This document shows positions 27,827 to 61,427 of a stretch of DNA of 64,000 nucleotides, piece after piece; the first letter of the stretch is position 1; every line of letters begins with the position of its first letter. A model generated the notes under the pieces. That model was not told the DNA's origin, ran no database searches, and saw only the letters and a list, made by a program, of their open reading frames with translations. The position numbers and the translations under genes were made by a program. The DNA is taken from the IMG/VR virus record IMGVR_UViG_3300023296_001674; one strand, 5' to 3'. The stretch is from a virus.

Positions 27827-27839
27827 AAAAACATATTAC

Positions 27840-27870
27840 TTGACACTTATATCGTGTTGTGGTATAAATA
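27840..27870 (+). promoter_or_regulatory. sigma70-type promoter overlapping a TATAAATA late promoter, driving tmRNA
   Basis: TTGACA-17 nt-TATAAATA. Confidence 0.75.
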
Positions 27871-27879
27871 TACTTGAAA

Positions 27880-28151
27880 TCGTTGATAGCAACATAATAG
27901 AACTTTCTAGAAGAGACTTCGAAGTCTCCTGCTCCACCAATTTACTACTTTCGGGGCAGAATTGGGATCGATAGGAGTTAATAAAAGTTGAAGTAGATTT
28001 TCCCGATCTAAGCTGGGTTAACGCGACGAAACACTACAAACGCAAGCTTAACAGCAAGCAATGATAATTTCAAAATGGATACTCGCCTAGCGGCCTGATC
28101 CTAACTGAATTTATTCGGGGTTTGGGAGACACCTGTCAACAGAAGTCTCCC
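27880..28151 (+). ncRNA. ssrA: Circularly permuted (two-piece) tmRNA
   Basis: T-arm + CTGCTCCACCA (ends 27939) lies upstream of GGGGCAG (27953); acceptor stem pairs with G3:U70; tag frame 28054-28098 reads ASNDNFKMDTRLAA*; 3' hairpin GGGAGAC-ACCTGTCAACAGAA-GTCTCCC. The 5' start is approximate. Confidence 0.9.
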
Positions 28152-28157
28152 ATTACT

Positions 28158-30164: not shown

Positions 30165-30698
30165 ATGAATATTAAAACAACTTTGATTGCAGCAGTTGCT
30201 GTTGCGATGATGTCGGCTGCGTCTATGGCGTCCGCTGAAGAAGCCACCACCAAAACTGGTGTATATGTAGGAACTGGTTTCAGTTTGGCTACATCTGATG
30301 AAGATGGTATTGAAAACCAAAAAGGTTTCAACTTTAATGTTGGATATGATTTCGGTTTGCTTCGCGTTGAAGGCGCGTATGATCGGCTAAGTGACGATGA
30401 CTTGCAATCTTCCATGTTTAGTGGAATGGGTTATTTCGATTTCGATAATAGTTCAAAATTTACACCGTTTATTGGTGCAGGTTTGGGTTGGTCTGATCTA
30501 TCAGACGTTAACGCAGGCGCAAATAACAGCGATGTTACATATATTGGTTCCGCAGGTGCCTCGTATGATCTTTCTAACAAATGGGACTTAGTAGGTCAGT
30601 ATCGATATTTGATGTCATCGACTGAAGTTTTATCTGATACCGGAAATACTGATACAGATTCTCAAATATTTACTGTTGGTTTGCGAACCACCTTTTAA
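30165..30698 (+). CDS. Outer-membrane beta-barrel protein (8-stranded OmpA-TM/opacity-like)
   Basis: Signal peptide, GVYVG, GYDFG.LRVE, TPFIGAGLG, YRY, terminal Phe. Confidence 0.85.
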   Translation: MNIKTTLIAAVAVAMMSAASMASAEEATTKTGVYVGTGFSLATSDEDGIENQKGFNFNVGYDFGLLRVEGAYDRLSDDDLQSSMFSGMGYFDFDNSSKFTPFIGAGLGWSDLSDVNAGANNSDVTYIGSAGASYDLSNKWDLVGQYRYLMSSTEVLSDTGNTDTDSQIFTVGLRTTF

Positions 30699-31641: not shown

Positions 31642-32025
31642 ATGGATATTAATATAGACGATATAACAATACTTGAAGAACCAATCTATGCAAAAAAAGA
31701 TGATGTGGTGCTTGAATCAGAAAATAGTAAGGCATTTATTTCATTTGATGAGTTTGAATGGAAGCCTATGGTGATTAATGTTAATCATACACAGAACAAT
31801 AATCATAAAATATCATGGCAACTCAATGAACAAGTGGCGTTTTTCGAACAAAATAACGGCAATGATTATAAATTCGATTTAAATACACATGATTGGATTA
31901 TTTATGACGCATATATTACCAATATCGTGTATCCTTCATTTGATATGGAAGTATATGAAGATGATACATATATCACTTTAACGTTACGATACGAAAAAGC
32001 AGAAGAAAAACAAAAAAAGACTTGA
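31642..32025 (+). CDS. Truncated tail-tube-like protein, paralog of 31244
   Basis: WKP, QL.EQ..FFEQ, DYKF, W.IY.AYI, ITLTLRYEKA; 22-bp and 40-bp terminal DNA identity with 31244. Confidence 0.6.
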   Translation: MDINIDDITILEEPIYAKKDDVVLESENSKAFISFDEFEWKPMVINVNHTQNNNHKISWQLNEQVAFFEQNNGNDYKFDLNTHDWIIYDAYITNIVYPSFDMEVYEDDTYITLTLRYEKAEEKQKKT

Positions 32026-32073
32026 CAAATGTCGCAATGCAGCATAGAATGATAAATATATTGCAGTGCAGCA
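32022..32073 (+). promoter_or_regulatory. sigma70 promoter + late motif carrying two PhaR-like boxes
   Basis: TTGACA(32022)-17-TAGAAT; CGCAATGCAGCA in the spacer; GATAAATA; TGCAGTGCAGCA at 32062-32073. Confidence 0.6.
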
Positions 32074-32138
32074 TTATGCTGGCTGCGTAACACACATATC
32101 GCCTAATATTAGGGATATATTACAAGGAGATTATTATT

Positions 32139-32363
32139 ATGTTTAAATTTGAAGATTTCACTAAGGCATTCGATCCAAAAGCATTCGACGTTGCTACTGT
32201 TATGGCATCCGTTGAAACCGCACAAAAGCAGGCATTTGAAGCTGCTGAAAAGAACATGAAAATTGTTGCTGATTTGGCTGAACAGAACGTTGCTACATTT
32301 CGCACCGCTGTTGATACAATGAATTCACAGACTGCAAAGGCATTTACTGCTTCCAAGAAGTAA
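32139..32363 (+). CDS. Phasin-like (PHA granule-associated) protein
   Basis: Ala-rich amphipathic helix MF.FEDF..AFDPKAFD...A.KN...A; strong RBS; terminator follows. Confidence 0.55.
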   Translation: MFKFEDFTKAFDPKAFDVATVMASVETAQKQAFEAAEKNMKIVADLAEQNVATFRTAVDTMNSQTAKAFTASKK

Positions 32364-32445
32364 ATTGCGATGGAATATGTAAAAAAGGGGGCTATGCCCT
32401 CTTTTTTGTCTCATAAATAGAATTATAACTGTTAGAAGGTGTTTA

Positions 32446-33024
32446 ATGCCAAATATTTTATATTTACATGGTGCTAATATGTCAGATGTTGGATTTACGT
32501 ATATTAAATCGATAATTGGCAAGCATAAGTATTCCAGTCCTGAATATTCTGTTCATACACCGTTAAAAGACAATATTAATACGATTATAGATACAGTGAA
32601 TAAAGATTTTAAGAAACCTGTGACAATTATTGGTCATTCGTTGGGTGGAATCATCGCAGTTGAACTATATCGTGCTGGATTGCCTATAGAAAAGATAATA
32701 ACACTATCTACGCCGTTTGGTGGATGCACTACGGCTGATAAGTTGCGATGGTTCTTTCCCACCTATCAATTATTCGATGATATACGCACAAATAACGCTG
32801 TTATACAGGGTTTACAGGATTTCCATGTAGATATACCTATGTTATCATTTGTAACCACTGACGGGCATTCTCCGGTGATAGACGGTGATAATGATGGAGT
32901 TGTAACGACGGAATCGCAGCAATCACTATCTGGCCCAATATATGAAGAAGTTCACTTGAATCATTTTGAAATATTGTTAAGTGAACCAGTAGCGAAACGC
33001 ATAAAAACATTTATTAAGAAATAA
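32446..33024 (+). CDS. Alpha/beta hydrolase (lipase/esterase-like)
   Basis: LHG oxyanion motif, GHSLGG nucleophile elbow, TPFGG, NDGVV, NH. Confidence 0.9.
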   Translation: MPNILYLHGANMSDVGFTYIKSIIGKHKYSSPEYSVHTPLKDNINTIIDTVNKDFKKPVTIIGHSLGGIIAVELYRAGLPIEKIITLSTPFGGCTTADKLRWFFPTYQLFDDIRTNNAVIQGLQDFHVDIPMLSFVTTDGHSPVIDGDNDGVVTTESQQSLSGPIYEEVHLNHFEILLSEPVAKRIKTFIKK

Positions 33025-33149
33025 ATTGACATTATAGTCCGTTTTAATGTATAAATAAAAGTATGGTGTCAATAACGACACTTATAAGTTAGGCAGATAA
33101 GCCTTGACATGATGGTCAAGCAGTTAAGTCCTACAACGGAGAAGAAAAA

Positions 33150-33986
33150 ATGGCTTTACAAATAGAAGACGCTATACCTGCGTCGAAAAAATCTAAAAAA
33201 ACGAAAAAATCCACCAAATCATTATCAACTATTCGTCTGCATTTCATATTGGATGAATCTGGCAGTATGGATGAATGCCGCCAATCGACTATTGATGGAT
33301 TTAACGAATATATCAATGGTTTACGGAAAGATACGAACAAATATTATGTTTCCTTGACTAAGTTTGAGGGTGGCAATATCAAAACTGTATTTGGTGATGT
33401 CAATCTTAAAAATGTTCGCAATATAACCAATGACGATTTTATTCCTGATGGAATGACTAATCTTAACGATGCAATTGGTGAAACAATCACAAAAATGCAA
33501 AATTCAAATATAAAAACACCACATAGTACATTGATTGTTATTTTGACTGATGGTAAAGAAAATGATTCGCGCAAATGGACGCGTGATGGTGTGGCAGAGT
33601 TGATTAAAATCACTGAAAAAGATGGTTGGACTGTCACCTTTCTTGGTGCTAATATTGACACTCAGGCAGTGAGTCGTGGATATGCTATTAGTGCGGATAA
33701 TGCACGATCATATACAACGAAAGGTATGCGTAACACTATGAGAAATCTCAGTGAAGCAACTGTGATGTATGCAGCCAGTGCATCTAGAGGTATATCTACA
33801 ATGGATATGTTTAGTGCGGAAAATACTGGTATGTCTGAAGCGGATTGGATGGAAGAAGATGCAGCATCTATAGATAAATTGGCTGCGACTATTGATTCAA
33901 ATGGACATAATATTGATGGTTCATTGAAACCAGAATTGAAAGATATTATTATTGGTGCAAATCAAGGAGACACTAAAAATGTCTGA
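33150..33986 (+). CDS. von Willebrand factor A domain protein
   Basis: ILDESGSM MIDAS, GMT.L.DAIG, ILTDG.EN.S, FLGAN. Confidence 0.9.
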   Translation: MALQIEDAIPASKKSKKTKKSTKSLSTIRLHFILDESGSMDECRQSTIDGFNEYINGLRKDTNKYYVSLTKFEGGNIKTVFGDVNLKNVRNITNDDFIPDGMTNLNDAIGETITKMQNSNIKTPHSTLIVILTDGKENDSRKWTRDGVAELIKITEKDGWTVTFLGANIDTQAVSRGYAISADNARSYTTKGMRNTMRNLSEATVMYAASASRGISTMDMFSAENTGMSEADWMEEDAASIDKLAATIDSNGHNIDGSLKPELKDIIIGANQGDTKNV

Positions 33987-60410: not shown

Positions 60411-60549
60411 ATTTTTATGTTGCATTGCGAAGGTATGCGTTTTATGCAACCCTCTAATGCGTTAAAAACATTGGATTTTATGGTCTAAGTATGATAAATA
60501 TATATGATGTTGCATTGCAGCATTTTATAACATACAAGGAGACTTAAAA

Positions 60550-60813
60550 ATGAACAACGAAATAGACTTTGACTTAGCAGTACGAAACGCACACCGTGAA
60601 CAAGCAGTAGTAATGGGTGCAGCAATTCTTTCATTGCTTAAAATGATTGGTAATGCTTTGGGTGCTGTATTTGGTTCTATTGCATCTGCAATTGAATTTA
60701 AACGTGCATTCAACGAACTTGATGCTTTGACAGATACGCAGTTGCGTGATATCGGTGTAAACCGTGGTGAAATCGCACACTTGATTATGAACCGCCATAC
60801 ACTTGCTGAATAA
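60550..60813 (+). CDS. DUF1127 (YjiS-like) small protein
   Basis: C-terminal EL..LTD.QLRDIGVNRGEI signature; AAGGAG RBS. Confidence 0.88.
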   Translation: MNNEIDFDLAVRNAHREQAVVMGAAILSLLKMIGNALGAVFGSIASAIEFKRAFNELDALTDTQLRDIGVNRGEIAHLIMNRHTLAE

Positions 60814-60927: not shown

Positions 60928-61005
60928 TGCGGGGTGGAGAAGTCCGGTCATCTCATCGGCCTCATAAGTCGAAATTCGCAGGTTCAAATCCTTGCTCCCG
61001 CAACT
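60928..61005 (+). tRNA. tRNA-Met(CAU), initiator-like body
   Basis: TCGGC-CT CAT AA-GTCGA; promoter TTGACA-N-TATAAT at 60889. Confidence 0.75.
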
Positions 61006-61107
61006 TATACTACGAAATTAGTTTTTGGAGTGTGAAGGCAACCAAGAACATTTGGCGGCGATGGCTGTTCAGAGGGATGAAAGTTCCCACCAAACTATAA
61101 ATATTAA

Positions 61108-61183
61108 TGCGGGATAGAGAAGTGGTCATCTCACAAGTCTCATAATCTTGTAATCGGAGGTTCGAATCCTTCTCCCGCATCCA
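61108..61183 (+). tRNA. tRNA-Met(CAU)
   Basis: CAAG.-CT CAT AA-.CTTG; CCA. Confidence 0.85.
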
Positions 61184-61219
61184 ATATTGGAAGAAAAAGA
61201 AAAACATTGAATAATTTAT

Positions 61220-61304
61220 CGCGGGGACAAGCACCGGGCGCTGATGAGGCTCATAACCTTATGTCTTACGACAAAGTTGGTTCGATTCCAACCCACCGCA
61301 ACCA
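61220..61304 (+). tRNA. tRNA-Met(CAU), C1:A72 mismatch, extra variable arm
   Basis: TGAGG-CT CAT AA-CCTTA; ACCA. Confidence 0.7.
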
Positions 61305-61351
61305 ATTCATTTATTGACAATTCCATCTAAAATCTATATTATATGATATAT

Positions 61352-61427
61352 GCCCCGGTCTTCTAACGGTTCAGGAAACTGGTTTTTCACATCAGCAATC
61401 GGAGTTCGATTCTCCGTCGGGGTACCA
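61352..61427 (+). tRNA. tRNA-Glu(UUC), duplicate of 59040
   Basis: Near-identical sequence; CTGGT-TT TTC AC-ATCAG. Confidence 0.9.

Follow-up and report, generated by a model that had tools for sequence, protein, structure and literature searches.

Results

The Locus and Its Genomic Setting

The stretch of DNA analyzed here, called the window, is 64,000 nucleotides long and corresponds to bases 97037–161036 of a 194,073-bp virus record of IMG/VR with a G+C content of 35%. In the window, a gene for a protein of 74 amino acids (aa) lies under a promoter that carries two boxes resembling the operators of the PhaR repressor, and a gene for a 192-aa serine hydrolase follows (Table 1). An earlier reading of these letters without database searches (the sequence-only reading) had listed the promoter, the boxes, the small open reading frame (ORF) and the hydrolase with its GHSLGG motif, and we found each of these elements where it had been placed.

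The completeness of the 194,073-bp record was estimated at 51% by CheckV. Proteins of the record are also found on a contig of 570,750 bp. Therefore, the record is part of a giant phage genome, and it covers about one third of the presumed ~570-kb genome. Almost all genes of the record are coded on the plus strand. Twenty-nine promoters in the record are close to the sigma-70 consensus, and motifs of the T4 late type are also used. Intergenic DNA makes up 8% of the record; 19 of the 36 occurrences of the late motif TATAAATA and 11 of the 27 occurrences of GATAAATA fall into it. A blastn search of phage records gave no match.

The phage encodes its own tmRNA. Using Rfam, we detected a permuted tmRNA of the alpha type at window positions 27836–28154 (RF01849 with 56.1 bits, above the gathering score; RF04321 with 61 bits), for which ARAGORN made no call. 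Because the tmRNA of the phage is of the alpha-type permuted form, it suggests that the host is an alphaproteobacterium. Two other genes of the window were identified. The product of the gene at 30165–30698, 177 aa long, has a signal peptide and is a beta-barrel protein of the outer membrane (OMP_b-brl, E 3.5e-18); its comparison with 401 alphaproteobacterial genomes gave three weak matches only. After the hydrolase gene, a VWA-domain protein (phrog_7371, E 1e-47) is encoded at 33150–33986, and the late motif TATAAATA precedes it at 33050.

Table 1. Features of the locus and of the second promoter with a PhaR-type operator (window coordinates).
Feature	Position	Strand	Description
Sigma-70-type promoter	32022–32050	+	-35 TTGACA at 32022–32027, 17-nt spacer, -10 TAGAAT at 32045–32050
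PhaR-type operator 1 (predicted)	32027–32047		12-nt box at 32033–32044, at the 3' end of the spacer, abutting the -10
T4-late-type motif GATAAATA	32051–32058	+	Directly after the -10
PhaR-type operator 2 (predicted)	32056–32076		12-nt box at 32062–32073, over the expected early and late start points
Ribosome-binding site AAGGAG	32124–32129	+	Ahead of the 74-aa ORF
Gene of the 74-aa protein	32139–32363	+	Ala-rich protein with a single long amphipathic helix; family of nine metagenomic members; resembles Phasin_2 weakly
Intrinsic terminator	32380–32408	+	13-bp stem, then a T run; ends the 74-aa unit
Gene of the alpha/beta serine hydrolase	32446–33024	+	192 aa, lid-less; GHSLGG; Ser65, Asp150, His173; behind the terminator
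Second promoter, putatively gated	60493–60525	+	GATAAATA late-type motif at 60493–60500, then the operator 21-mer at 60505–60525
Gene of the DUF1127 protein	60550–60813	+	87 aa; PF06568 with 35.9 bits, above the cut-off; 3' of the second operator

The Promoter of the 74-aa Gene and Its Two Predicted Operators

The promoter of the 74-aa gene agrees with the sigma-70 consensus at 11 of 12 positions and is the best one in the region. Judging by the GATAAATA motif directly after the -10, it is predicted to be a dual early/late promoter. The core of the operators is the palindrome YGCRNYGCR with AT-rich arms. Operator 1 matches the published 21-nt degenerate motif at 20 of its 21 positions, and its 12-mer is identical to that of the SMb20609 site, which has been validated by EMSA; operator 2 matches the motif at all 21 positions. 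Both overlap the core promoter, the first box lying within the spacer and the second across the start region, at a centre-to-centre distance of 29 bp. When transcribed, both boxes could form leader hairpins (z about -2), which is expected of any transcribed palindrome. The terminator 3' of the gene is strong: its centroid structure has -15.9 kcal/mol and z -3.2, and none of 200 shuffled sequences folds as well. The unit is therefore monocistronic.

We assessed how unusual such operators are in the record. The loose core YGCRNYGCR occurs 56 times, as against 49 +/- 9 times in shuffled sequences, so that it is not enriched genome-wide; the count of the 21-nt IUPAC motif in the record likewise has no significance by itself. 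As the degenerate core gave no enrichment, weight matrices were built from published PhaR sites. These palindromic 21-nt matrices derive from 14 PhaR sites of Sinorhizobium meliloti located on pSymA and pSymB (PMC12542648, Table 3). Three training sets were used, namely all 14 sites, the seven sites that are efficient in EMSA, and five sites, with the two most phage-like ones left out. The scores refer to the PhaR sites of S. meliloti.

With each of the three training sets, the three top-scoring positions of the entire 194-kb record were the same. The first is window position 60505 with about 23.5–23.6 bits, followed by 32056 with about 20.2–20.5 bits and 32027 with 18.6–19.9 bits, depending on the training set. 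In Markov-1 shuffles, about 0.05 sites of at least 19.9 bits are expected per genome, compared to the three observed. All three sites are intergenic. The box is carried by one of the 29 near-consensus sigma-70 promoters, that of the 74-aa gene, and by two of about 30 intergenic late-type motifs. It is so rare among both that it is not a generic part of promoters. The proposal of PhaR-type operators made in the sequence-only reading gained here, since the three phage sites score like sites bound in experiments (the training sites range from 17.6 to 26.6 bits) and stand at the top of the record. Thus, the sequence comparisons give good support to the view that genuine operators of the PhaR type are present, in positions suited to repression, at two and probably three promoters of the phage.

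Further PhaR-Type Sites in the Phage and in Other Viral Contigs

The best site of the record lies ahead of the gene of a DUF1127 protein. This operator matches the published degenerate motif at all 21 positions and is located 3' of the late-type motif ATGATAAATATAT, which is also present at the promoter of the 74-aa gene. Just 3' of the DUF1127 gene, at 60928–61427, there are two tRNA-Met (CAT) and one tRNA-Glu (TTC), and the tRNA regions each have a near-consensus sigma-70 promoter ahead of them.

The phage also carries a full-length lpxC gene (PF03331, E 1e-78) at record positions 164378–165242, that is, at a window coordinate of about 67342, beyond the end of the window. The exact 12-mer TGCAATGCAGCA is present in the promoter region of lpxC (record position 164384). 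Its arms are weak, and the site scores 14–15 bits, which by itself is not above chance. For these reasons we regard the lpxC site only as a candidate.

Many viral contigs of IMG/VR that are unrelated and have a G+C content of 38–60% also contain the PhaR-type 12-mer in clusters or tandem arrays (L016–L019, L023, L026–L028, L031, L032, L034–L036, L038, L040, L043, L050, L051 and L053). Some of the arrays have 4–5 copies within 50–150 bp, and some are at contig ends. Some lie 5' of an ORF of 132–159 aa which, by eye, resembles a terminase small subunit. These arrays may be decoys for PhaR or sites for a phage protein. In a scan of IMG/VR for double boxes, most matches were arrays of boxes or repeats within coding sequence, and none belonged to a phasin-like gene.

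The Same Operator Sequence at Bacterial Phasin and phaR Promoters

We searched for the exact 18-mer of site 60505, the sister site of boxes 1 and 2, in a set with one genome per prokaryotic species (GTDB). The 18-mer occurred at least 120 times, compared to about 17 times expected for a random 18-mer. Among the matches listed, the records are overwhelmingly those of Alphaproteobacteria, Betaproteobacteria and PHB-forming Gammaproteobacteria. From the at least 120 loci, 80 were taken, and the ORFs closest to the 18-mer on either side (119 in total) were scanned with Pfam. A Phasin_2 gene lies directly 3' of the 18-mer in 14 of the 80 loci (E down to 6e-28). In two of the 80, the gene 3' of it is phaR, recognized by PHB_acc_N, the DNA-binding domain of PhaR. 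No other Pfam family exceeds two matches among the flanking ORFs.

In the bacterial phasin promoters with the 18-mer, the box resembles the phage arrangement also in its placement: it is located 8–10 nt 3' of the -10, and there is often a second box, either close to the -35 or within the spacer. The phasin promoter of a Rhizomicrobium locus (L128) has one box in the spacer and one after the -10, as in the phage. PhaR is encoded in four of the five tested genomes with such promoters. Thus, the sequence of the sister site occurs at bacterial phasin and phaR promoters in the same place relative to the -10, which again speaks for the operators being of the PhaR type. Two MAGs, one of the Desulfobacteraceae (L124) and one of the Betaproteobacteria (L113), have the 18-mer 5' of phaR itself, a position consistent with autoregulation.

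The 74-aa Protein

Using an exhaustive phmmer and profile search, we found that the 74-aa protein belongs to a family of nine members, all of them metagenomic and unnamed. The AlphaFold2 model of the protein (pLDDT 72) has a short N-terminal helix and a long helix at residues 18–72. The protein contains 20% Ala. The mean hydrophobic moment is 0.31, compared to 0.20 in shuffled sequences, and the long helix is amphipathic throughout, which is true of most family members.

The sequence-only reading had called the gene phasin-like. A Pfam scan of the protein encoded in the window gave no match to Phasin_2 (PF09361). Four of the nine family members match Phasin_2 weakly, with E of about 0.01–0.1, and in P0002 and P0006, the two members whose match ranges were read, the register of the match agrees. 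No other family is matched by more than two members. The gathering cut-off of Phasin_2, 24.9 bits, is reached by none of the nine, the best match having 16.2 bits. When a profile of 13 genuine phasins was run against 241 phage ORFs, the 74-aa ORF ranked first (E 0.017). In the reverse direction, with the family profile run against the 119 bacterial flanking ORFs, phasins made up five of the top seven, a ranking with high composition bias. Comparison of the family with the 13 phasins by hhalign gave a probability of 0.4%, a negative result at the level of profiles. The ESM Atlas leads for the protein, Phasin_2 with 0.87 and PHB_acc with 0.84, are below threshold.

Other searches were negative. 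BLASTP gave no match, and a search of the PDB sequences with the family profile returned noise only. There was no match in a tblastn search of plasmids with one family member, and a search for related loci in viral, metagenome and genome collections found no close relative of the protein. Thus, the weak Phasin_2 matches and the rankings in small databases favor the earlier claim, while the Pfam cut-off and hhalign go against it. The likeness to phasins is weak and stays under all thresholds. Together these results are suggestive of a protein that is phasin-like in character, its membership in the family being putative. That the 74-aa product acts at the granule surface is a putative function, suggestive only.

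The 192-aa Hydrolase

Of the 41 homologues of the hydrolase, 36 were aligned, and the residues Ser65, Asp150 and His173 do not vary among them. Its predicted model has a pLDDT of 93.6. The closest fold neighbours are BlEst2 of B. licheniformis (6wpy, Z 22.3), a Streptomyces lipase (Z 20.1) and the N-terminal domain of Legionella PlaB (6zti, Z 20.1); LipA of B. subtilis (1i6w) follows with Z 18.7 and an rmsd of 1.8. With the minimal bacterial lipases and esterases BlEst2, LipA and PlaB, the phage enzyme shares the lid-less alpha/beta fold, the G-x-S-x-G elbow and the Ser-Asp-His triad. It differs from them in its low identity (12–22%), in having no signal peptide and in being encoded by a phage. 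The best 50 fold matches are lipases, esterases and thioesterases with no PHB depolymerase among them, which does not exclude that family. Pfam likewise assigned the hydrolase to generic alpha/beta families only. Judging by its sequence and model, this is an active-looking enzyme of the lipase/esterase type that forms a separately transcribed unit.

The hydrolase had earlier been considered as a possible PHB depolymerase and as part of one module with the small gene. The first part of this proposal is not borne out by the generic lipase/esterase families and folds, nor by the searches for domains of PHB metabolism. No domain of the PHB-depolymerase families, the lipase-like PhaZ7 type included, was found in the Pfam scan of the hydrolase or in the whole-record searches, and Esterase_PHB, PHB_depo_C, PhaC_N, Phasin_2 and PHB_acc_N are all absent from the 194-kb record. 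The single module is likewise unsupported: a strong intrinsic terminator separates the two genes, and the weight-matrix scan found no PhaR-type operator near the hydrolase. A co-regulated PHB depolymerase is thus not supported.

A search for related loci with the hydrolase found no close relative, only hydrolases of 31% identity in unrelated contexts. Distant homologues are encoded in jumbo phages of Ralstonia and, on T4-like contigs of marine origin, beside genes of the baseplate; the small-protein neighbour is absent there. Three pairs of homologues of the small protein and the hydrolase come from contigs of equal size and source (1798, 2084 and 4270 bp). By this equality, the two genes seem to be adjacent in close relatives.

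Discussion

In the published model, PhaR represses the genes of phasins and depolymerases, and PHB granules sequester PhaR (PMC12542648). In S. meliloti, phaP1 and phaP2 have two palindromes each, those of phaP2 being 28 bp apart, and SMa1961 has a single PhaR site between the -10 and the transcription start site (TSS) (PMC12542648). The phage locus has much in common with this PhaR/AniA–phaP circuit as it is known from phaP1, phaP2 and SMa1961. The two share the operator sequence down to its AT-rich arms, and in both, the boxes lie over the core promoter with a small helical protein encoded 3' of them. The promoter has two boxes, as that of phaP2 does, at 29 bp instead of 28 bp, and operator 2 is placed between the -10 and the TSS like the SMa1961 site. 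In contrast to the bacterial circuit, the phage version is found on a giant phage of the lytic type and is joined to a late-promoter motif. The phage protein is half the size of the phasins and is not a demonstrable member of their family, and the regulator of the phage operators is presumably supplied by the host.

We propose that the 74-aa gene forms a transcription unit by itself and that two operators of the PhaR (AniA/PhbF) type lie over its dual early/late promoter. One operator would fill the -35/-10 spacer and the other would cover the start point, which is the layout of bacterial phasin promoters. In a host with little PHB, free host PhaR would sit on both boxes and block RNA polymerase. 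In a host loaded with PHB, the granules would sequester PhaR, and transcription of the phage gene would go ahead. The same operator would gate the DUF1127 gene of the phage and, in a weaker copy, may stand ahead of lpxC, making up a small carbon-storage regulon. Like phasins, the short amphipathic helix may attach to the surface of the granules, which is the least certain step. The hydrolase would be expressed from a transcript of its own, and an action of this enzyme on PHB is not supported. We infer that host PhaR binds the phage boxes and that PHB relieves the repression. Taken as a whole, the gating of the 74-aa gene by host PhaR, with a small phage regulon and a separate hydrolase, is in our opinion the likely explanation, held with moderate confidence.

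Other explanations have to be considered. It is possible that the boxes are bound by a protein of the phage, such as a PhaR homologue encoded elsewhere in its genome, or serve a phage-specific circuit in which host PhaR is not involved. Roughly two thirds of the presumed 570-kb genome lie beyond the record, and clusters of 4–5 copies of the 12-mer or tandem arrays of it occur on many unrelated viral contigs, both of which could favor this possibility. We nevertheless find it unlikely, because the PHB_acc_N domain is absent from the 194-kb record and because the sequence of the boxes, their AT-rich arms and their placement match the bacterial phasin and phaR promoters. Moreover, a PhaR encoded by the phage would sense PHB all the same. 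Alternatively, the small gene with its promoter could be a captured bacterial cassette (a moron), the operators being inherited baggage with no adaptive role. The layout of the promoter is indeed indistinguishable from that of bacterial phasin promoters, and further host-like genes (those of the outer-membrane beta-barrel and DUF1127 proteins) are present in this accessory block. Capture is hard to reconcile with an operator that is joined to the late-promoter motif of the phage itself at two loci that lie far apart and carry unrelated genes. The 74-aa family also has no close bacterial homologue and consists of nine metagenomic sequences, at least three of which apparently lie beside the phage hydrolase. 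Capture without a role thus appears quite improbable to us.

Some PHB depolymerases are lipase-like, and the adjacency of the two genes is seemingly kept in close relatives, as the three pairs from equal-sized contigs indicate. One could therefore assume that the small protein and the hydrolase make up a single PHB-tapping module in which the hydrolase, under PhaR control, degrades PHB or its oligomers. We give little credence to this assumption: a strong terminator stands between the genes, there is no box near the hydrolase, and the families of PHB depolymerases are unmatched. The best 50 fold matches are lipases, esterases and thioesterases. Distant homologues of the hydrolase are found in other surroundings, as in jumbo phages of Ralstonia or close to baseplate genes. 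Finally, the boxes could be chance matches or leader hairpins acting as RNA, with no DNA-binding protein. In line with this, the degenerate core shows no enrichment across the genome, and both sites fold as hairpins with z of about -2. Against it are the three intergenic, promoter-overlapping sites of at least 19.9 bits where 0.05 are expected per genome, and the identity of the sequences with those at bacterial phasin promoters. The chance or RNA reading is strongly disfavoured, and its probability is very small.

With gating by host PhaR as the preferred explanation, the locus can be compared with what is known from cyanophages, in which PhoB boxes lie 5' of pstS and phoA and NtcA sites are present in promoters. 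There, too, accessory genes are wired to a nutritional sensor of the host through a host operator. Unlike those systems, the sensor here would report a stored polymer, PHB, and not an external nutrient, and the phage genes are not recognizable metabolic genes. The sites that switch phasin genes lie over a phage promoter, so the phage probably reads the carbon reserve of its host through these PhaR-type sites.

A further-reaching picture can be drawn, which we put forward only tentatively and think rather doubtful in its entirety. An alphaproteobacterial giant phage might run a PhaR regulon consisting of a mini-phasin, a DUF1127 modulator of RNA or metabolism and possibly lpxC. The mini-phasin might displace granule proteins or PhaR and thereby redirect the store. 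As the regulon would work through host PhaR, phage expression would be tuned to the stored carbon of the infected cell.

A literature search returned no report of phage phasins or of phage genes controlled by PhaR. Phages borrow host regulators that report external nutrients. If the proposed gating is true, an internal carbon store read through the sensor of PHB granules would be a new input for phages. One promoter, two boxes and one known repressor would then offer a simple handle on how giant phages match themselves to the physiology of the host.
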